From: Planctomycetota bacterium
Lineage (GTDB): Bacteria > Planctomycetota > GCA-002687715 > DRQF01
Assembly: GCA_036479435.1 (NCBI GenBank)
Contig: JAZGFI010000249.1
Coordinates: 1-39,000, forward strand
DNA: 39,000 bases
Direction of reading: 5' to 3'
The notes below the pieces were generated by a model. The model did no database searches, was not told where the DNA came from, and saw only the letters and a list, made by a program, of their open reading frames with translations. Shown piece by piece: positions 1-38,372 of the stretch. Positions within the stretch are counted from its first letter, which is position 1, and each line of letters starts with the position of its first letter. A program made the position numbers and the translations under genes.

Positions 1-1146
1 GGCGGCACTTACGGTTGGTCAGAGAGCTTTGTGAACGTCGTCAACTCACCCAACGCCACGGGCACCTTAAAGACGAAGCAAACGAGCTGTTTGTTTAGCT
101 CGGAGACCGTACTCAACCAAACCGTCAACTTCGCAGAAACCCACTACACCAACGAGTGTCTCGTGAACGAATGGATCGGATCCAGCTCCGTGGTTTGGGA
201 TGGGCAAGTGATTCCGATCGGTGGCGTCATCGACCTGAGCCAAGAGGACCTCGGAAGCCACAACTACATCGTGACCCGCATCGACGGTGCCAACACCGAG
301 ATCTACGATTTCGTCATCACCGTCGAGTCTGCCTACACTTCTGACTTTATGGGCTCCGCGGCCAACGGCCTCAGTCAGCCACAAATCCCCGGTGGCCCCG
401 GCGTGAGCCCCATCGTTGCGCTGCCCATCGTGCCCATGACGATTCCGATCGACTACGTCGTCCCCACCGCGACGGTGTCCTTCACCAACAACACCGAGTT
501 CGCCGTTGACATCCAGGTCGTCCCGACGGCCTTGCAAACGGGGATCATGGTAGAAGTCATGGAGAACCAAGCTCAGGTACAGCCCGGCGACACCATCGTT
601 CGCGTCATCGAGTTCGGTACCTTGCCCGGTTGGGTCGTTCCTGCAGGCGTCCCGCTCAAGGCCATGGTCAATATCCACGCCATCAGCCCCTTTGGACCAG
701 TCCTTTCCAGCACGGAAGTAACGGCGGCATCCTGCTCGCTCGTGACGGGAACCGAGGAAGACTTCATCTTTGAGTCGACCATCAACGGCGGCCCGACGCA
801 AGACCTCTGCGCTCTGAACGCCACCGCCGGTGACGTTCTGGTCTTCAAGATGCTCTCGCCCCAAGGTGCCTTTGATGGCCTTCCCGCCTTCATAGTCGGC
901 GACATTTACACGCCCGGCTTCCCGCTCACTCGAATCTTGCCGGCCTTCCCGGAGATTCATGTCAGTGCGAACTACTTCACCGTCACGCTCTTCGCCCCGC
1001 TCGCTCCGGGCGGCACCTCGGTCGCAGTGAACCTGCCCGCGGGACTCGCAGGATTCGCCATTCGCCTCCAAGGCCTAGCGGTGACGAATACCGCCGACAA
1101 CGGCCTCGTCGCCTGCACCAACGCGCACGACATTGTGATGGAATGA
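1..1146 (+). CDS. Large, probably secreted protein, 5'-truncated by the window edge, with a Planctomycete-type C-terminal beta domain
   Basis: Frame is open from base 1 (GGTYGWSESF...) to TGA at 1146. Thr/Val/Gly/Pro-rich beta-type composition; ends ...LPAGLAGFAIRLQGLAVTNTADNGLVACTNAHDIVME. Confidence 0.7.
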   Translation, partial: GGTYGWSESFVNVVNSPNATGTLKTKQTSCLFSSETVLNQTVNFAETHYTNECLVNEWIGSSSVVWDGQVIPIGGVIDLSQEDLGSHNYIVTRIDGANTEIYDFVITVESAYTSDFMGSAANGLSQPQIPGGPGVSPIVALPIVPMTIPIDYVVPTATVSFTNNTEFAVDIQVVPTALQTGIMVEVMENQAQVQPGDTIVRVIEFGTLPGWVVPAGVPLKAMVNIHAISPFGPVLSSTEVTAASCSLVTGTEEDFIFESTINGGPTQDLCALNATAGDVLVFKMLSPQGAFDGLPAFIVGDIYTPGFPLTRILPAFPEIHVSANYFTVTLFAPLAPGGTSVAVNLPAGLAGFAIRLQGLAVTNTADNGLVACTNAHDIVME

Positions 1147-1287
1147 CCGCCACCTCCCGGATACCCGGGAATCCGGTCGCGTGGTACATCACGTAGTCCA
1201 GCACGGAAGATCTACAAGGGATCTTCCGTGCTTCTTTGTTTCGACATTGGATATACTCAGGTCCAACTCGGATGGAGTACTTCTTCG

Positions 1288-1812
1288 ATGCGTTCTTTTA
1301 TTGCCGTGATCATCGGCGCTGCGGTCATGATCGCCATTAGTGCCATTGGATTGGCCGTTGCGTTTCAGTCTCTCGGCGCCGAATTCGCCTTTGAAAAAGG
1401 CAGTTGGCTGCCCAGCATCATGTGGACGGCGGCCATCGCCATTCCCTTGGGCATCTTAGCGGCGGTCTTTGGTGGCTTGATCTGCTCGATCATCGCCAAG
1501 GCGCCGGGGACGCGGCCCCCCTTGGTCTTTGCCATGATCTTTCTTCTGTTTGGACTCGGCACTGCGATGCTGGGGATCATGAGCGCCGACCAAGAGAAGG
1601 AGAACACGAGCATCGTGAAGGATCTCACGGCCTCCGCCCGATCGGCCGCTATCGAGTTGGAGAAAAAAGACCTCACGACCATGGACGCGGGTAAGAAATT
1701 CAACAAGTTCAAACCACTGTGGTACGACTTCGCCACCACGCTTTGTGGCTTCTTCGGAATCCTCTATGGCGCCCGCATGGGCCGCAAGTTTCGCGGCCCC
1801 GCGAAAGCATAA
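1288..1812 (+). CDS. Hypothetical integral membrane protein (about 4 TM helices)
   Basis: ATG 1288 preceded by GGAG; four hydrophobic segments; basic C-terminus. Confidence 0.75.
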   Translation: MRSFIAVIIGAAVMIAISAIGLAVAFQSLGAEFAFEKGSWLPSIMWTAAIAIPLGILAAVFGGLICSIIAKAPGTRPPLVFAMIFLLFGLGTAMLGIMSADQEKENTSIVKDLTASARSAAIELEKKDLTTMDAGKKFNKFKPLWYDFATTLCGFFGILYGARMGRKFRGPAKA

Positions 1813-1826
1813 ACCGAGTGCCTACT

Positions 1827-1867
1827 CGGTGCCAGGCACCGTAAAGTGACGGCGGAGTGCCTGGCAC
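1827..1867. repeat. REP-like palindromic doublet, copy 1
   Basis: cggtgccaggcaccg palindrome, spacer, then gtgcctggcac; 37/41 identical to 4125-4165. Confidence 0.8.
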
Positions 1868-1876
1868 GGTTCGTGA

Positions 1877-3994
1877 TCACTTTGCGATCTTGACCTTGGC
1901 GAAGTGGTAGACCTCGTGCCAGTCGGCGTCAAACCAGCCTTTGATGTCGAGTCGGCTGGGGAACGGCCGTCCACCTTTTAGTATCACGAAGTCCGCTTTT
2001 AGCTCAGCGTCGATCTCGCCGCCCTTGGCGTGCACGCGGGTGGCCAGCCAATGGCCCGCGATCTGTTCGAATTCAAATTGTCGCCGCCAACCGTTCGCGT
2101 ATTCGATGCTCGCGACGTTGCCGTTCTTAATCACCAGGGCTTTGACCGCGCCGCCGGTGACAAGGATGCGGCTCTTTCGGTTCGGATCGGGCTCCAAGAC
2201 CGAATCCACAAACTCTAGGTCAAACGAGCGGCGGCCGGCGAAATCGTGCCGGGCCCAAATCGAATAGCGAGCACGAATGAGATCTTCCAGTTCCTTGGGT
2301 TTCCCCAACTTCGGCTTGCGCGCAAACTTGATGTTGAGCTTTTCAAAAACTTGCCCAGCCGTCACGCCGCGCCCGGTCCAAGCGATCATCTCGAAACGGC
2401 CTTTCAACTCGCGCTGGTTTTCCCACATGTTGGCCGCCGAGGTCACAACTTGGGCATAGCTCCCTTTTAGATGCAGCGGCTCGTCCGGGTAGCGATAGGC
2501 AAAATCCCAGGCTGCACGAGCTCTCGCCACGGCACTACCCGAGGGTGGTAAGGGCGGTTTCACGCTGCCGACAAAAACGAAATCCTTCAGTTTCAGACTT
2601 ACTTTCGTCTCGAGAGTGTCGCTTGAGTAGCCGTAGACATTGTGCTCGAAGCGAACGGGGTGCACGTAGCCTGCCCTGCGACTGTGCTCATAGGCTCGCG
2701 TCTCTTTCTTCCAAACACCGGCGGCATGGGTCTGAAACTCCTGAATGAGTTTCGGAACGATCTTGCCGTTTCTCTTGGTCTCATTCTGCCGCCTGAAGAA
2801 GGCAAAACTAGACGACTCACCACCCTTGCCGCCGACCAACCGTTCTCCATCGAATTCGAAAATCTGGTGCTCAAGGTAGGGACCTTGATTCAGCGACTTG
2901 CGATACAAGGCAACAGCCGGCCCTGGCGAGAGAGAATCCATCGTTATCTGAAAGTATTGACTAAGCTCCTTGAGAGTCGGCGCCGTAAGGTGGGCGAATG
3001 CGGCAGACAAGCTGCTGGATAGGTGCCCGCGCAGGTTTTTCTCAAGAGGCTCGCCAAACTTGACAGAACCTCGCTGGTCCTTTTTCCGGGTCCAAGTGAA
3101 CCCGACCTCACCTTTTTGCGGCGCGGTCTGGCGGCCGGACGCAGTACTCTGCGCATTGAACTTGATGATCCCTTTGACCGTGAGATCGCCAGGTGGCCAA
3201 CGCTCTTGGCGCTTCCAAGCCGACGCGAGCAGAGCCTGGGCCTTTCTTTCACCGCGGTCAAACACCACACTCCAGTCTTCGACTTGGACTTTCTTCAGCT
3301 CGCCGAATAGGGTGTTGTAGAGTTCAGCCCCGGCGCTAAACGACGGGTCGATGCTCTTTGTGCCCTGCCCCACCCAGCGCTCCTCGTTGGGCGCCAAACT
3401 CTGATTGCACAGCCCCCAATTTCCCAGTCCGCTGTACCTCACTCGAAAGGTCACATCGACCCGGTAGGGCAACTTGTTGCGCACGAGTACCTGAGTAGCT
3501 TTGATCTCCCCATTGACCGGGTCTATGACCTTCTTGAGCCTCTTCTTCAAGATCTTGACGGGGTTTTTCCGGACGGAGGCTCCGCGAAAAAACGACGCCC
3601 GGAGAACCCGCACTTTGAAACTGGTGTCCCTTTTTTCCGTCCATGGCCGTAGGACGAAGTACTTCTCTTTACCCTTGGCCGGCACGCCGCGGCCAGCCCG
3701 TCCGTAGCTTGCGCCCTCGAATCGAACGGCGATCGTCTTGGGATTGGACAGGGATTTCGACCGCTTGGTATGAGGGCTCGCAATGACCTCAAATTCCAAG
3801 GGTTCTGCGCTCAGCGAACCCTTGTTTTTCACGTCAATCCGCAGAAACGCCGATTTGGCATCTTGGCTGGTCGAGCCTACTCGACACACAAGGTCGTTCA
3901 GATCGCCGGGCAGAAACTCAGGGCCGGATTGGGCAGATAGATTCGCAGGGCAAAAGCTTAGAGCCGCGAAGAATACGATGAGCACAGATTTCAT
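1877..3994 (-). CDS. Secreted hypothetical protein with two DUF3386-like segments
   Basis: Signal peptide MKSVLIVFFAALSFCPANLSA from ATG 3994; internal repeats ALLASAWKRQERWP and ARARAAWDFAYRYP; Lys/Arg-rich. Confidence 0.7.
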   Translation of the reverse strand: MKSVLIVFFAALSFCPANLSAQSGPEFLPGDLNDLVCRVGSTSQDAKSAFLRIDVKNKGSLSAEPLEFEVIASPHTKRSKSLSNPKTIAVRFEGASYGRAGRGVPAKGKEKYFVLRPWTEKRDTSFKVRVLRASFFRGASVRKNPVKILKKRLKKVIDPVNGEIKATQVLVRNKLPYRVDVTFRVRYSGLGNWGLCNQSLAPNEERWVGQGTKSIDPSFSAGAELYNTLFGELKKVQVEDWSVVFDRGERKAQALLASAWKRQERWPPGDLTVKGIIKFNAQSTASGRQTAPQKGEVGFTWTRKKDQRGSVKFGEPLEKNLRGHLSSSLSAAFAHLTAPTLKELSQYFQITMDSLSPGPAVALYRKSLNQGPYLEHQIFEFDGERLVGGKGGESSSFAFFRRQNETKRNGKIVPKLIQEFQTHAAGVWKKETRAYEHSRRAGYVHPVRFEHNVYGYSSDTLETKVSLKLKDFVFVGSVKPPLPPSGSAVARARAAWDFAYRYPDEPLHLKGSYAQVVTSAANMWENQRELKGRFEMIAWTGRGVTAGQVFEKLNIKFARKPKLGKPKELEDLIRARYSIWARHDFAGRRSFDLEFVDSVLEPDPNRKSRILVTGGAVKALVIKNGNVASIEYANGWRRQFEFEQIAGHWLATRVHAKGGEIDAELKADFVILKGGRPFPSRLDIKGWFDADWHEVYHFAKVKIAK

Positions 3995-32406: not shown

Positions 32407-34197
32407 TCAGTCGATCTCAAGGTCGTGAATCGCCTCTTCCACGCGCCCCCGTACGTCCGGGGAGAGATCGGCGCGATCTAAGAGATCCCGCATCGCCGCG
32501 AGCGAGGCAACGTCACCGCGTTTCACCAACCCGCGCACCGCGGACAACAGCGAAAAGCGTCCACTGTTGCGGTCGGCCAATACCGTTCTCAAAAAACGGG
32601 TCGCCGCCGGAATGTCTCCTTCCAAGCGAGCGACGTTGCTCACAACGTGAGAACGCCGATAGCGATCTTTGGTTTCGTGGTAGATCGTCGCAAGAATCGT
32701 CACGCCTTCGCCTTCGCCCCGCTCTGCTGCGTAGCTCGCAGCGCGATACTTCACCCACTCGTCCAAATCCGCGCGGGCCACCGTCAAGAAATGCTGACTG
32801 AGATCAACATCCGGCAAGCGATTGAGGCAAAACAACGCCGCACGCCGCATCTTGGCTTCGCGGTCAAAGCAGGCTCGCTCCAAAGCGCGTCGCGTATCTG
32901 GTAGTGCTATCTCCGCGATCAGTGCCATCACCGCGATGCGCCGCAGCTCAGCATCTTCAGAGTTGAAGACACCAACCAAGGTCGTCACCGCCTCTGCGCC
33001 AAAATCGCGAAGTCTCGTGGCAGTTTGAATCGTCAATGGCGAAGGCGAGTTAAGCCGCACCGAGTTCGTCTGGTCCACAACGTGGAGATAAGAGGCAATG
33101 ATCACCGCGGGCGTGTCTTCATTCGCCGCCTGCAATTCGCTAGAGCTGCGCAGCAGCGTGAGTTCATACTGCAAGAACTGGTTGGCCGCCACAACACTCT
33201 CCAGTTCGCCCCGCAAACCCCCGAGGAGTGACTCAAGCTCAGCAATGCGCGACACCGAGATGGCCTCCAGAGCTGCGCCCTGTGGTGAGGGCCGCAGTTG
33301 ACGGCTGTCACCAGCTTGCAGCGACTCGACGCCTTCGTCGGTTCGAAGCTCAACATGGCCGCGCAAGACCAACACACTTTCTTCCAGTTGGTGGGCCCTA
33401 AGAACCAAAGTCGCATCCCGCCCCTCAAGGCGTCCTGCGGGGAGCCCAAACTCAAAACCGTGATCGCGGATGTGCAAGGTGGCGGTACCGTGCACCAATT
33501 CGACATCAAAAGGTTCAGCGCTATCGACCGGCAGAGCTCTCAATCCGAGGATGGAGCCCTCGCTCAACACCATCATGCCAGCGCCTTCGACTTGCAGCAC
33601 AAGGTCGCCTTCGCCCTGCTCAGCCAATAACTCCAGGCCCTCGCCAAGCGCTTGTCCGCGCTCGCGGTCAAAACGACTCCAGACTTCGCTCCCTGCGGGC
33701 CTGACTTGCAAACCGCCAGCGCGCAAGGACAGCAATGGGGCTTCTGACGCCGCGACCACGACTCTCGATACCGGCGCGGGAACCGCAGCACTTTCACCGT
33801 AGTAGGCGCGGTCGAAGAACATGCCGCCGCCAAAACTGATGCCAACCAGCGCTGCGGCCGCGAGTCCCCAAGACGCCACGGTCTTCCACCGTAGTGTGGG
33901 CATCGGAGGCCTGCGTTCGGTGTCATGCCGACGATCAAACTCGGTACGCGAAGGCGTCGTCTCCGGCATCCCCGGCGAGAACAGATGGTCGCTGGCCAAA
34001 ACTCGATCTGGCGCTACCGCCAGCATTAAGGCCGTCGAGACTTCTTCATCATCCGACCAATAGGCAGCGCAGCTCTCGCACTCTTTCAAGTGCGTTTGAA
34101 AGGCCAAGTTCTCCGACCCGGTTAGCTCACCGTCCAAAAACAGCTCGAGCTTTTCGTTCACAAAAACGCAGGGGTCGTCGCGGTGAAAGAGGTTCAT
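32407..34197 (-). CDS. Anti-sigma factor: zinc finger (HxxxCxxC), TM helix, FecR-like domain, coiled coil, HEAT repeats
   Basis: FLDGEL...HLKECESC; hydrophobic WGLAAAALVGISFGGG; VELVHGTA...VLVLRGHVEL...LQAGD; C-terminal HEAT-like repeats; ATGA overlap with the sigma gene. Confidence 0.8.
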   Translation of the reverse strand: MNLFHRDDPCVFVNEKLELFLDGELTGSENLAFQTHLKECESCAAYWSDDEEVSTALMLAVAPDRVLASDHLFSPGMPETTPSRTEFDRRHDTERRPPMPTLRWKTVASWGLAAAALVGISFGGGMFFDRAYYGESAAVPAPVSRVVVAASEAPLLSLRAGGLQVRPAGSEVWSRFDRERGQALGEGLELLAEQGEGDLVLQVEGAGMMVLSEGSILGLRALPVDSAEPFDVELVHGTATLHIRDHGFEFGLPAGRLEGRDATLVLRAHQLEESVLVLRGHVELRTDEGVESLQAGDSRQLRPSPQGAALEAISVSRIAELESLLGGLRGELESVVAANQFLQYELTLLRSSSELQAANEDTPAVIIASYLHVVDQTNSVRLNSPSPLTIQTATRLRDFGAEAVTTLVGVFNSEDAELRRIAVMALIAEIALPDTRRALERACFDREAKMRRAALFCLNRLPDVDLSQHFLTVARADLDEWVKYRAASYAAERGEGEGVTILATIYHETKDRYRRSHVVSNVARLEGDIPAATRFLRTVLADRNSGRFSLLSAVRGLVKRGDVASLAAMRDLLDRADLSPDVRGRVEEAIHDLEID

Positions 34198-34772
34198 TCG
34201 GCGTCCTCCACTTTCAAGAACTCCTTCAGCTTCAACTTGCTACGGTGAAGAATGATGCTCACCGAATTCGCGGAGATCCCGAGCTCACGCCCGATATCTC
34301 GACACGACAGTCCATTCGAATAACGCATCAACAACACCGTCCGGTAACGATCCGATAGTTCGCCTATTGCTTGTACGACTGAGGCCGCACGTTCTTCCAT
34401 CACCGCTTGCTCATCGGGGGCTGCGGTCGACTTTTTGTTGAAGATTCCGTAGTGAGCGATGCCTTCGGTCGAGAACACATCGTTCTCCAACTTCCCGCGC
34501 CGCAACTTCGAGATTCCAAGGTTCACGCCAATCCGAAACAGCCAAGTCGAGAAGCGAAAGTTCTTTCGATAGCGATCGATGAATTGAAAGGCCCGCAGAA
34601 ATGTCTCCTGCGTCACATCGCGCGCCAACTCCGTATCGCCGACCACTCCAAACACGATGTTGTAGAGCGACTTCTCGTACCTTCGCGTCAGCTCCCCAAA
34701 AGCGGCCTGGTCTTTTTCCAGCGCCCGCCCAATCAGCAGCTCTTCTTCGACTTCACTCAGTTCCTGGCCCAT
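34194..34772 (-). CDS. ECF sigma-70 factor
   Basis: AFGELTRRY, ARDVTQETFLRAF, FSTWLFRI (region 2) and LSDRYRTVLLMRY...IGRELGIS (region 4); ATG 34772 after GGAG. Confidence 0.93.
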   Translation of the reverse strand: MGQELSEVEEELLIGRALEKDQAAFGELTRRYEKSLYNIVFGVVGDTELARDVTQETFLRAFQFIDRYRKNFRFSTWLFRIGVNLGISKLRRGKLENDVFSTEGIAHYGIFNKKSTAAPDEQAVMEERAASVVQAIGELSDRYRTVLLMRYSNGLSCRDIGRELGISANSVSIILHRSKLKLKEFLKVEDAE

Positions 34773-35005
34773 GGGCACTCCGCATTCTGGGGAATCAGCT
34801 CTGCAACAGATTCTACCGCTGAACCCCCCGATCCTTTCGCTCTTTTCCCCACACCCGGCATACCCATTCGCGGCCTCAAGTTACTGCATCTAAATTACTT
34901 ACAGCGCTCCCGCTATCTCTGCCCTCGATCGCCCCCATTTCCGCCCCTCATCGATACGCTCGATTTGGACAGTTAGCATGCGCCCCAACCCAAAGAGGCC
35001 TCCCG

Positions 35006-35452: not shown

Positions 35453-35775
35453 TCCTCAATAGAACATGGACGCTTCGCCGTTCCTCTGAGTGCTCAAGGG
35501 CCCTCACCAGGCAGAGGCTCCTTTTCATTTCACCAAACCGAGTTCGGCAAGATGCAGGAACAACAGATAATCCTGGTTCCTCCCGGCAGTAGACAACTTG
35601 GCGTACGACCACCGGCACAGACTTTTCCCCTCGGGCGACTGCACGCTAGAGTCAACGGGGTAGCTGAAATCTGTCGCGATACATTTCGCGAAGCGGATGG
35701 CCTAGCTGGAAGACATCGACTGATCTCGAATGGTTGCTAAACTGCTGAGACACAGCAAACAACAGGTGAAACACG

Positions 35776-35871
35776 ATGAATTTTTTGGCTGCCGACACAG
35801 TCCTCGCGTTCTTGCTTGCGACTGCCTTGATGAGTTGCGGGGCGAAACCTCAAGCTGAAGCTGCCAATTAA
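35776..35871 (+). CDS. 31-aa lipoprotein signal peptide ORF, probably a truncated gene remnant
   Basis: AGGTG RBS; MNFLAADTVLAFLLATALMS-CGAKPQAEAAN*; lipobox LMSC; too short for the ORF track. Confidence 0.45.
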   Translation: MNFLAADTVLAFLLATALMSCGAKPQAEAAN

Positions 35872-36717
35872 GTGGGAGAATTAGGTCTGACTCCGAATGG
35901 CAATGAGACCACGCCGCCCTCAGACGGTTCGTTTGGGGATGATCTCGCGAAGTTCTACGAGTCCTCTTTGGTGCCGCTCATCTTCAAGCCCTTCGCGGCA
36001 GATATTGCCAAGCGGGCGGCGGAGTTGCAGCCTTGTACAATCTTGGAAGTTGCCTGCGGCACCGGGGTCGCCACGCGCGCGCTTGCGACGGCACTTTCTA
36101 CAGAGTGCGACCTCACTGCGACGGATCTCAGCGAGGCGATGATCGCCCACGCTAAGATCGTGGGCACTCCGCGGGCAGTAAGCTGGCGACAGGCGGACGC
36201 CGCAGCCTTGCCCTACGACGATTCTTCTTTCGACTTGGTGGTTTGCCAGTTCGGGGTCATGTTTTTTTCAGATCGCGAGGCCGCCTATCGCGAGATCAAG
36301 CGAGTGCTGCGTCCGGGCGGCACATTTTTGTTCAGCCTATGGAATGCAGTTGAGCACAATGACTTCGCAGGATTGGTGGTCGCCGCTACGGACAGTCTGT
36401 TTGCGGACGACCCTCCGGTGTTTTTGGCCCGCACGCCGCACGGGCATAGCTGCCCCGAAGAGATTCGATCCGAATTGAGAGCCGCTGGTTTTGGGACTTG
36501 CAAGTTGGATCAGCGGCGCGAAGTCAGCCAATCAGTAAGCCCGGAGTTTGCCGCAACCGCTTACTGCCACGGCACTCCTTTGCGCAATGAGATTGAGGCC
36601 CGTCGCCCGAACGGACTCGCCGAGGTGACGGCTACCATTGCCGCCGCGTTTCGATCACGGTATGGCGATGGACACTTCGAGGGCAAAACGAGCGCAGTCG
36701 TCGTTTCGGCCCGCTAA
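35872..36717 (+). CDS. Class I SAM-dependent methyltransferase (UbiE-like)
   Basis: YESSLVPLIF, ILEVACGTG, ATDLSEAM, LPYDDSSFDLVVCQFGVMFF, RVLRPGG; start codon uncertain. Confidence 0.88.
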   Translation: MGELGLTPNGNETTPPSDGSFGDDLAKFYESSLVPLIFKPFAADIAKRAAELQPCTILEVACGTGVATRALATALSTECDLTATDLSEAMIAHAKIVGTPRAVSWRQADAAALPYDDSSFDLVVCQFGVMFFSDREAAYREIKRVLRPGGTFLFSLWNAVEHNDFAGLVVAATDSLFADDPPVFLARTPHGHSCPEEIRSELRAAGFGTCKLDQRREVSQSVSPEFAATAYCHGTPLRNEIEARRPNGLAEVTATIAAAFRSRYGDGHFEGKTSAVVVSAR

Positions 36718-36796
36718 GACAGCGCGACTGCGACTGGACGCCTTTGCAGTTGCAGACCATGATGGTGACCCGTGGTCTTTAGAAAGAGAGAAGCCG

Positions 36797-37222
36797 GTGC
36801 CCCGTATTCTTGCCTTAGCCTTGCTTGTCGCCGCTATGACTTCATGCTCAAGACCTGTCGTCAGCGAGAACGTTGCGGATGAAGAGCTGCAAGCCGCACA
36901 CCGCATCGTTGTCATCTATACGCCCGGCTGAGGCGCTGGTCCCCTCGCGGTCGCGAGGATCAAGGCGATAGCTCTTCAGCACTCCATTGCCGTTGAAGTT
37001 GAATCACGGGTCCTGAAGACGGAATCCGAAATTGACGAGAGCTACAAAGGCAGCCCATCGATTCTCATGAACGGCATGGACCTTGAGCCTGCCGCACGCG
37101 ATCGCTTAGTGGAGGGTTTTTGCTGACGCGTTTATCCAGGCTCTCAGCCTGGAGCTCCCGGGGTACCCGGAGACGCCATGATCGAAGCTGGATTTCGCGA
37201 AATGGCTTGGCTACTCGATTGA
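36797..37222 (+). CDS. Putative thioredoxin-fold lipoprotein with two selenocysteines (U45, U110), 141 aa
   Basis: GTG 36797 after a purine-rich RBS; lipobox AAMTS-C; in-frame TGA at 36929 and 37124; intervening YKGSPSILMNGMDLEP and downstream RVY...GVP...MIEAGF match a family with Y..GC and G..CR.Y; hairpins follow both TGAs. Confidence 0.8.
36934..36967 (+). promoter_or_regulatory. Candidate bacterial SECIS element for TGA 36929
   Basis: cctcgc-GGTC-gcgagg stem starts 11 nt after the TGA; lower stem tggt/atca with a CC bulge. Confidence 0.7.
37135..37172 (+). promoter_or_regulatory. Tandem hairpins after TGA 37124; candidate second SECIS
   Basis: tccaggct-ctc-agcctgga (8 bp) then ctcccggg-gta-cccggag. 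Confidence 0.5.
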
Positions 37223-37258
37223 GTCAGCAACGACTCACTGCCTCAATTGACCAGTTCT

Positions 37259-38372
37259 TCACTCAACGACTTCGAATCCTTCAAAGCTAGCATCCAGCGT
37301 CGGCGCAAAAGCATCCGCGGTAGCCACCGCTTTTAAGAATTCCTTCAAATGATCGAGCCGGACTCGTCGGCTGAACTCCAGGCTCCAAGATTTCTCGCCG
37401 TCCGAATTCTCACTGGCTTCCGCTTCCTCGAGTTTATATCCCGCTTTCTCGGCGCGCATTTTGATCGCCTCAAAGGCGGCTTTCGTCGAAGCCGAAAAAG
37501 AGAACACGATCTTGCGTCGCACGTTGATCCGCAGGCTATTGCGACGATATCTGGCCAAGGCCCGTATGACGGATGCGTCAAGTTGAATGACGCGTTCGGC
37601 GAGACAGGCCTTCAAAATTGGAGCTTCTTCGATTTCAACGACTCCCTCCTTGGCGCGGCCTAAAACCCTCGCCAAGTACCCACTGGCAGGAGCCAGAACC
37701 CCGAAGTGACCAATCTTCGGCACGACGAGCACTTTGAGTTTTGGATTTCGATTGTGTCGTTGCATAAGCCTCGCATCGCCGGAGTTGCCCCAAACCCCCT
37801 CGATGACCAGGGTGGGAGACTTGATGTGCGGCAGGAATCTAATCGGGGCGCGAAGGTCGCTCTCTTGGTGGTCTTCAACGTCAAACTTGCAATCTTCGGG
37901 TCCGTAGCCGTCGGCCCTCGCAACCGGACCAAAGGCGACGACCTGCTTGAAGATGTCCGTGGCGCCAGCGACTAAAAGCACCAGCGTGCCACCGGTGCTG
38001 TGACCGCCGAGATAGATCCGGTCAGGGTCGACACCCTTAAGACCCTTCAAGAACTGACCCGCAGCAACGACGTCTTCGACTTCGCCGTAGAAAGACTCTT
38101 GCTGCCACGGATTGCCGGCGCTTCCGCGGAGAGCGGGATACATCGTGATGAAACCGGCCTCGCGAAATGCGCGCGCCGACTAATCGTTGCCGCGTGGTCT
38201 GGGCCGCCAAATCCCAGCGCCGTACCCGCCGGCGTGTTCAGCGACAATTAGAACTTCCCAACGCGACTCATGCGCCAGGAGGATTCCCCGTTAGCAACCA
38301 TACGATTGCGGGGTGTTTCTTCTCGCTGTTCTTCGGAGCGACACCAACAGGGATCAGTCCAAACTTGCTCAT
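37259..38372 (-). pseudogene. Alpha/beta hydrolase (prolyl oligopeptidase-like) fused to an RraB-like domain, with a disrupted 5' end
   Basis: Intact 37259-38143 part has GHSTGG nucleophile elbow and GHF. Upstream in-frame TAG at 38180-38182 (GND*SARAFREAG) and an out-of-frame fragment KKHPAIVWLLTG within 38268-38372. Confidence 0.7.

Follow-up and report, generated by a model that had tools for sequence, protein, structure and literature searches.

Does a reading frame that is crossed by two TGA codons encode a genuine protein with two selenocysteine (Sec, U) residues and, if so, what would such a protein do? The question is raised by positions 36797-37222 (forward strand) of a 39,000-nt stretch of contig JAZGFI010000249.1 from a Planctomycetota bacterium (GCA_036479435.1); the whole of this stretch is referred to here as the window. 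An earlier note, made from the nucleotide sequence, had described the locus as the gene of a membrane-anchored lipoprotein with both TGA codons on conserved Cys sites, and had suggested redox chemistry or heavy-metal binding as its role. We find that the region very probably encodes a genuine double-Sec protein and, with a little less assurance for the fuller claim, that it is a double-Sec lipoprotein gene of the DF family. Across that family, the same domain is often fused to, or lies beside, mercury-related proteins, and this pattern suggests a role for a protein group that has been listed as hypothetical.

A single reading frame across two TGA codons

Once the TGA codons at codons 45 (site 1) and 110 (site 2) are read through, translation of 36797-37222 gives a frameshift-free frame of 141 residues (Table 1), and the peptide agrees with the one proposed earlier except for V or M at the GTG start. 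The gene occupies the gap between its neighbours, as had been stated: a methyltransferase open reading frame (ORF) on the same strand ends at 36717, 79 nt upstream, and the end of a convergent ORF lies at 37259, 36 nt downstream. An interpretation of the region as split small ORFs was rejected. Between 36700 and 37300 there are no differences among contigs of runs X1, X2 and X3, which stem from three studies (of these, X1 and X2 are possible sources), and both TGA codons are also covered by two short contigs of a fourth run, X7. The letters being identical in contigs of several runs, the TGA codons are not assembly artefacts.

The read-through protein was analyzed with Cys in place of U. Among 5.8 billion predicted proteins, a word-indexed search retrieved nothing of 78-249 amino acids (aa) at E <= 1e-3; the lack of any relative of similar length in this collection agrees with the expectation that standard gene callers miss the gene.

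Table 1. Features of the putative double-Sec gene (positions in the window)
Feature	Position	Strand	Description
Whole gene	36797..37222	+	141 codons + TGA stop; GTG start; Sec at codons 45 and 110 (predicted)
Predicted signal peptide with lipobox	36797..36847	+	M/V-P-R, ILALALLVAAM, T-S-C17; Cys17 is the predicted lipidation site; based on sequence reading
In-frame TGA 1 (Sec45)	36929..36931	+	Takes the first-Cys position of an active site of thioredoxin type; in the model, strand 1 precedes it and helix 1 follows
SECIS-like hairpin 1	36943..36958	+	6-bp stem CCUCGC/GCGAGG, GGUC loop at 36949-36952
Cys109-Sec110 (TGC TGA), CU dipeptide	37121..37126	+	TGA at 37124-37126 is site 2 of the DF family, in the C-R-x-Y motif
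SECIS-like structure 2	37128..37176	+	Hairpin a 37135-37153, hairpin b 37158-37170, outer stem closing both
Terminal TGA, true stop	37220..37222	+	TAG ends of relatives; weak downstream fold
SECIS, selenocysteine insertion sequence.

The protein belongs to the DF family and both TGA codons fall on its Cys columns

Judged by profile matching, the window gene is a divergent, predicted exported member of the 'DF family (seleno)protein' of NCBIfam (NF049942): residues 37-131 of its product align to positions 1-95 of the 96-position model (E 7.5e-16, 57.9 bits). Two relatives on metagenome contigs, L041 and L042, score 82.8 and 88.6 bits, above the curated cut-off of 70, which places the clade within the DF family with the window protein as its most divergent member; the closest relative, L015, reaches 69.3 bits, and L016, discussed below, 43.5 bits. 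A clade-specific profile matches the window with 200.8 bits over 36797-37216, and a profile built from 20 relatives retrieved 5966 cluster representatives at E <= 1e-3, 3164 of them at E <= 1e-10, among 1.84 billion proteins. The DUF2703-type assignment made in the earlier note did not hold, since DUF2703 (PF10865) gave 12.6 bits (E 0.15) and did not reach its gathering threshold of 23.6 bits; the identity lies with its sister family, NF049942.

The claim that both TGA codons sit on conserved Cys sites was borne out. In a 20-sequence alignment Cys or Sec is found at site 1 in 20/20 sequences and at site 2 in 19/20, and among the best 150 family representatives, to which the following column counts also refer, the codon-45 column is Cys in 150/150 and the codon-110 column in 148/150. 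The flanking motifs are constrained as well: the S-P of G-S-P-T is present in 150/150, the R after site 2 in 150/150 and the Y in 144/150, and the window protein carries G-S-P-S and U-R-V-Y where the family has G-S-P-T and C-R-x-Y.

The AlphaFold (AF2) model of the mature protein has a predicted local distance difference test (pLDDT) score of 92.2 and a predicted template modelling (pTM) score of 0.83. VIA-align identifies it as thioredoxin-like (best Z 7.3), nearly all of the top 50 chains having the thioredoxin fold. A Foldseek search of the PDB gave no hit at E <= 0.001, with weak thioredoxin matches (best E 8.3e-3). U45 takes the place that the nucleophilic Cys occupies in thioredoxins.

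Relatives with TGA at the same columns

In a sample of 401 genomes from the phylum, DF matches were found in 26, and three of these genomes carry a DF gene with two in-frame TGA codons: G000, the genome of the window; G054; and G035. The remaining matches carry Cys at site 1 throughout, and at site 2 with one exception. The G054 protein (L015, also recovered as L040) is about 46% identical to the window protein, with U at both sites and a TAG stop, and the G035 gene (L016) has TGA at both DF columns. Four metagenome contigs of the same clade have TGA at site 2: L041 and L042, with Cys at site 1, and L043 and L044, whose 5' ends are cut off. The recurrence of TGA at the same columns in G054 and G035, together with the site-2 TGA codons of the four contigs, is more than chance would give, and the homologues thus bear out, in both the phylum sample and the metagenome contigs, that the two columns hold either Cys or TGA.

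Identity between the window protein and L015 is 11/44 (25%) before U45, 28/64 (44%) between the sites and 19/31 (61%) after U110. This climb is the opposite of the decay that follows a nonsense mutation and agrees with the earlier argument that random decay is unlikely. L015 and L041 both stop at a TAG at most three residues from the terminal TGA of the window gene.

The exported Sec-bearing clade is rare. With the clade-specific profile, the exported double-Sec form was found only in G000 and G054 within the phylum sample, and within the class of G054 only G054 itself, one of three genomes, has the gene. With the patterns used, a collection of 185,579 species yielded a single locus, L040, the gene of which is the one already seen in L015.

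Sec machinery and TGA usage in the genome

The earlier note had made the double-Sec proposal dependent on Sec machinery in the genome, and a complete set was found: selA (526 bits), selB (357 bits, summed with neighbouring matches in the same frame) and selD (372 bits), all above their curated cut-offs, and tRNA-Sec. The selD gene itself carries one in-frame TGA, which marks its product as a Sec-type SelD. The tRNA-Sec (anticodon tca) lies at 33644-33741 of contig C117 beside selD and selA, and selB is on contig C237. The region 33644-36236 of C117 (reverse strand) thereby forms a compact selA - selD - tRNA-Sec cluster.

Among the stops of 2236 long ORFs in this genome, TGA accounts for 1020, TAG for 630 and TAA for 586. 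As TGA is the commonest ordinary stop, global recoding of TGA was ruled out.

RNA hairpins downstream of the TGA codons

The loop of hairpin 1 lies at +21 to +24 after TGA1, with its GU at +22/+23 counted from the U of UGA. In the SECIS of E. coli fdhF, G23 and U24 lie in a GGUC loop. The CUCGCGGUCGCGAG palindrome that forms hairpin 1 is present at the identical distance in L015; L041 and L042, where site 1 is Cys, show nothing comparable at this position.

Structure 2 is more stable than most shuffled sequences (z -2.85; 1/200 shuffles equally good). Its hairpin b has the form CCCGGG-GUN-CCCGGG, with the loop GUA in the window (+40 to +42) and thus GU at +40/+41 after TGA2. G40 and U41 are invariant in the alignment of 6/6 relatives, and the hairpin is seen in 5/6 of the individual minimum-energy folds. 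It overlies the codons of a PGVPG motif (37157-37171), and third codon positions are conserved in its stem, with the third position in the loop varying (T, A, C). PGVPG is missing from the Cys-type family members in the alignment. In the clade of the window protein, the peptide motif appears to be set by the RNA element. In hairpin a, pairing is kept despite different sequence, with for example A:U in the window and U:A in L015.

The 62 nt after the terminal TGA fold weakly (-8.5 kcal/mol, z -0.47) and hold no SECIS-like hairpin at the right distance. This weak fold, together with the TAG ends of the relatives nearby, indicates that the third TGA is the stop. We propose that SelB with Sec-tRNA(Sec) would read each internal UGA, helped by the hairpin just downstream in the mRNA, and that the third UGA, which has no such hairpin, would terminate translation.

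Weighing decay and read-through without Sec

Several observations weigh against a double-Sec lipoprotein gene of this family. The score of 57.9 bits is below the NF049942 cut-off, for which reason we file the window protein as a divergent variant and not as a member that passes the model, and it matches no Pfam family in a Pfam scan. The DF gene was not found in the 8 genomes of the same family that were searched, and among 14 genomes of the same order the only match is in G022, which has two Cys-form copies; the distribution is thus sporadic. Shuffled sequences fold as stably as hairpin 1 (z -0.25 to -0.47), and as this hairpin occurs in just two sequences, both with the same letters, it provides no covariation. 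After TGA2, the GU loop lies at +40/+41, farther from its codon than that of E. coli fdhF (GU at +23/+24) and at the margin of the distances of 16-37 nt that bSECISearch uses. Finally, no SECIS family was matched between 36500 and 37600 in an Rfam search at E <= 10, the only match being noise (Mcr7, 11.3 bits).

Some of these points would suit a decaying pseudogene, in which two independent TGY to TGA nonsense changes struck a former Cys-type DF gene and left at most 44 codons translated. Cys codons are one transition or transversion from TGA, the NF049942 score of the window protein is the lowest in its clade, and the gene was not found in the same-family genomes just mentioned. We nevertheless consider decay very improbable, given that the frame has neither frameshifts nor further stops, that G054 and G035 have TGA at both columns and four contigs have it at site 2, that identity to L015 peaks after the second TGA, and that conserved hairpins follow the TGA codons in a genome with the full Sec machinery. 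The TGA codons might instead be read through without Sec, by near-cognate insertion of Trp or Cys or by local recoding, to give an ordinary Cys/Trp protein. Such a reading can draw on the fact that selenium incorporation is deduced here from sequence alone, on the thermodynamically unremarkable hairpin 1 and on the empty Rfam scan. It has a very slight chance of being correct when set against the use of TGA as the commonest stop of long ORFs, the presence of selA, selB, selD and tRNA-Sec with an in-frame TGA in selD itself, and the alternation of TGA with Cys, and only Cys, at both columns, which is the classic signature of Sec. Insertion of Sec at both U45 and U110 is therefore what we predict.

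Predicted export and lipidation

The N-terminus of the window protein (Table 1) presumably satisfies the PROSITE-type lipobox rule. Among the relatives, L015 has a LAGC lipobox, L042 a VLAC lipobox and L041 a signal peptide without the Cys. The earlier description of a membrane-anchored lipoprotein is thus supported by a predicted lipoprotein-type signal and by the L-A-G-C lipobox of the closest relative, and the window protein is predicted to be exported and lipidated. Among the best 150 family representatives, 14 have at least 22 residues before the domain, and a lipobox-like match is present in one of those (P0082). With so few N-terminal extensions, the core DF family looks cytoplasmic and the clade of the window protein an exported offshoot.

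Association of the DF domain with mercury and soft-metal proteins

Fusion partners of the domain were surveyed in 47 of the 50 listed DF representatives of 175 aa or more, and mercury-related fused domains were found in 32/47. MerT is the partner in 24 of the 47 (19 above the Pfam gathering score, 20 also with HMA), MerB in five and MerC in one; one further representative has HMA only and another the MerB helix-turn-helix domain only. The other 15/47 carry thioredoxin/glutaredoxin repeats, NUDIX, ABC-2, SnoaL, Glucodextran_N or nothing.

The phylum sample gave the same picture, with a DF-MerT-HMA fusion (L020), a DF-MerC fusion (L033) and a DF-MerC-like fusion (L016). Of the seven Cys-type DF loci examined in the phylum, four (L017, L018, L019 and L023) are beside or fused to MerR-type, MerT/HMA or MerA-like genes, and L021, L013 and L014 have no mer-type neighbour or fusion. 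In L018, DF adjoins MerT-HMA, and L019 has the order MerR-DF-MerT/HMA; L023 has DF-MerT/HMA-HMA followed by a reductase with MerA as its best match. In L017, from G022, DF forms the N-terminus of a 555-aa flavoprotein disulfide reductase (1163-2827, forward strand), and a MerR/CadR-type regulator (720-1274, reverse strand) is divergent from it. The DF domain sits there at the usual place of the HMA-type metal-binding domain of MerA. Identification of the L017 reductase as MerA itself was rejected, glutathione reductase being its best match (306 bits) ahead of MerA (253 bits), with all matches below their cut-offs.

Three further loci deserve mention in their own right. Contig C208 of G022 holds two Cys-type DF paralogues about 6.6 kb apart (L017 and L014), the second adjoining an IS21 IstB gene, a hint that the mer-like cluster may be mobile. 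In G355, a single ORF (L032, 1195-2169, reverse strand) fuses ArsD (127.6 bits) to DUF2703 (70.9 bits), and this fusion connects DUF2703, the sister family of DF, with the handling of arsenic. The third is L016 of G035 (1072-1794, reverse strand), in which a DF domain and a MerC-like membrane domain are crossed by three in-frame TGA codons, at codons 12, 76 and 136. At the third TGA the motif is C-P-T-U, against C-P-A-C in the Cys homologues L033 and L035, and beyond this codon the frame is open for 105 further codons with transmembrane-like segments. A hairpin follows each TGA (z -1.76, +0.20 and -2.32). The MerC match, at 24.9 bits, is below the Pfam cut-off of 27.6.

The simplest reading of the fusions and neighbourhoods is that the DF domain is a two-ligand binder of soft metals that exchanges Hg(II)-type ions with transporters and enzymes. 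Of the two roles suggested in the earlier note, the family-wide fusions favour heavy-metal binding over generic redox chemistry. Residues U45 and U110 may lie near each other. After export and lipidation at Cys17, U45 and C109/U110 would form one soft-ligand site, able to bind a thiophilic Hg(II)-type metal or metalloid in the periplasm, and the cytoplasmic Cys-type members would do the equivalent beside MerT, MerC, MerB and MerA-like proteins. In the clade of the window protein, the DF site would have moved to the periplasm and been rebuilt with selenium. In a preprint by Haft & Gwadz (10.1101/2022.07.06.499078), Cys-Sec (CU) dipeptides are said to be uncommon among selenoproteins and to be linked with mercury or organometal systems. 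By analogy with its Cys-type relatives, it is quite possible that the window protein binds an Hg(II)-type soft metal in the periplasm through U45 and C109/U110.

Metal binding or redox catalysis

Three points count against this proposed metal site. No mer gene adjoins any of the five Sec-type loci (window, L040, L041, L042 and L016), the window gene being neither adjacent nor fused to merR, merT, merP, merA, merB or merC, and the neighbours of L040, L041 and L042 being unrelated. The window genome, which is 92% complete, has no MerT match, and its best MerA match reaches 372.5 bits against a cut-off of 454.45. Lastly, the mercury link comes from cytoplasmic Cys-type members, whereas the clade of the window protein is exported. 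The first two of these observations are in keeping with the main rival, in which the double-Sec lipoprotein would be a periplasmic redox catalyst that binds no metal: U45 and U110 (or C109) would cycle between selenol and diselenide or selenenylsulfide, and the substrates to be reduced or isomerised would be protein disulfides, peroxides, or oxyanions of the selenite/tellurite type. The rival can further point to the thioredoxin-like fold of the model with U45 at the place of the nucleophilic Cys, to the tandem fusions with Thioredoxin_3/glutaredoxin domains in P0004, P0006 and P0028, and to the absence of ars as well as mer genes near any member of the exported clade; moreover, most bacterial selenoproteins are redox proteins, as stated in the review PMC9312934. 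We rate such a catalyst as rather unlikely. The protein has no CxxC, and the partner Cys/Sec is 65 residues away in the family-specific C-R-x-Y motif; the dominant fusion partners (32/47) are metal transporters and MerB, not redox enzymes; and established chemistry implies that a periplasmic diselenide would be very hard to re-reduce.

Returning to metal binding, a broader version can be put forward with more reserve. The DF domain could be an unrecognised thioredoxin-fold chaperone for mercury and other soft metals in mer systems, taking the place of the usual N-terminal metal-binding domain in the MerA-like reductase, and the window protein an exported selenolate trap that operates without MerA or MerT. 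If true, such a membrane-tethered periplasmic trap would be a protein-level form of mercury-selenium antagonism.

Comparison with the published record and with known systems

DF is already catalogued as a selenoprotein family: Xiao & Zhang 2025 (mSystems, PMC12013277) described it as 'hypothetical protein DF' of a single organism, Desulfosediminicola flagellatus. Their paper gave it neither a function nor a conserved domain and reported no homologues with TGA in other organisms, and a table in a 2026 review (PMC13188914) lists DF under NF049942 with one Sec. Two Sec residues in a protein are not unprecedented, as several two-Sec families appear in the same table. In supplementary file 3 of PMC12013277 the founder carries U at site 1, and its sequence stops at ...FGIS, one residue short of the site-2 column, the position of which we set by comparison with L018, where the spacing from motif to site is the same. 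The founder thus looks truncated at a second TGA, and its published sequence is probably that of a two-Sec protein cut off at site 2.

The window protein is homologous to the DF family along all of the 96-position model and has both of its Cys/Sec columns and its G-S-P-T and C-R-x-Y motifs; with the published founder it shares the Sec at site 1. It differs from the family in having two Sec residues in place of the single one listed in PMC13188914, a predicted lipoprotein signal peptide, and a C-terminal extension that carries a PGVPG...AGW motif. DUF2703 resembles DF in being a small thioredoxin-like domain, with weak cross-matching (E 1e-6 to 1e-10 for some DF members), and in its fusion to a metalloid protein (ArsD, in L032), but DUF2703-type relatives have an N-terminal CxxC, unlike the DF clade.

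In functional terms, the analogy we propose is with MerP and the N-terminal domain of MerA, which are small two-cysteine binders of soft metals that work with MerT and have their ligands in GMTCxxC. DF genes occupy mer-operon positions in L019 and L023, the domain is fused N-terminally to a reductase in L017, and the window protein, like MerP, is predicted to be exported. The folds differ, however, being ferredoxin-like in the HMA proteins and thioredoxin-like in the window protein, whose putative ligands are Sec residues 65 positions apart, in a genome with neither MerT nor a MerA above the cut-off. ArsD has a thioredoxin-like fold, and its clustered Cys residues bind a soft metalloid that is handed to a transporter; it is fused to DUF2703 within the same superfamily (L032). 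Unlike the window protein, ArsD is cytoplasmic and has no Sec, and no ArsD match to the window protein was seen in the Pfam scan. The thioredoxin-like and CU-motif selenoproteins of organometal systems (SaoT, SaoC, SaoB and those of the MerT family), as described in 10.1101/2022.07.06.499078, also have Sec in place of a metal-ligand Cys and a CU dipeptide, and some are exported or lipoproteins. They belong to different families, the window protein having no NCBIfam match to NF040730 or to other Sao models, and the window has no SAO-type neighbourhood.

Our literature searches found no paper that links the DF domain to mer operons, and the strong family-wide link of DF to mercury genes is new here. 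Also new are the exported Sec-bearing subclade and its TGA-bearing relatives, the existence of one-, two- and three-Sec DF forms, and the coincidence of a SECIS-like hairpin with the conserved PGVPG motif, in which hairpin b would illustrate cleanly how an RNA structure can constrain a protein sequence. Standard gene callers do not see the gene, and the catalogue entry of the family (one Sec, one organism, and no TGA homologues, domain or function) is incomplete: in a single phylum sample at least three genomes, and in addition four metagenome contigs, hold members with TGA codons. The pattern of fusions and neighbourhoods gives a 'hypothetical' selenoprotein family a testable role in mercury or soft-metal handling and suggests the DF domain as a new accessory component of mer operons. 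A Sec...Cys-Sec site in an exported protein would act as a natural ligand of unusual strength for Hg and soft metals or else as a periplasmic diselenide centre, and either chemistry would be of interest to selenium biochemistry and metal bioremediation.

Genomic neighbourhood of the gene

The neighbours of the DF gene in the window say little about its function. They comprise a class I S-adenosylmethionine (SAM) methyltransferase, an S9-hydrolase/RraB protein, a glyoxalase, a DUF695 protein and an extracytoplasmic function (ECF) sigma/anti-sigma pair. A promoter scan of 35600-37500 gave no promoter-like site, and terminator-like sites were no more numerous than in shuffles; that the DF gene is co-transcribed with the upstream methyltransferase is a guess. 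A conserved pairing of DF with a methyltransferase is not claimed, as the upstream enzyme of the window and that of L040, encoded two genes downstream, have only generic core similarity (27% over 142 residues) and both are below every specific NCBIfam cut-off.

The convergent ORF (37259-38143, reverse strand; 294 aa) combines a partial prolyl-oligopeptidase/alpha-beta-hydrolase region, covering only positions 42-107 of the Peptidase_S9 profile, with a C-terminal domain of RraB, the regulator of ribonuclease activity B; the pairing of these two parts is unusual. At 32407-34778 (reverse strand), the ECF sigma factor (34194-34778) overlaps by 4 nt its 596-aa anti-sigma partner, which has an N-terminal zf-HC2 domain and C-terminal HEAT repeats.

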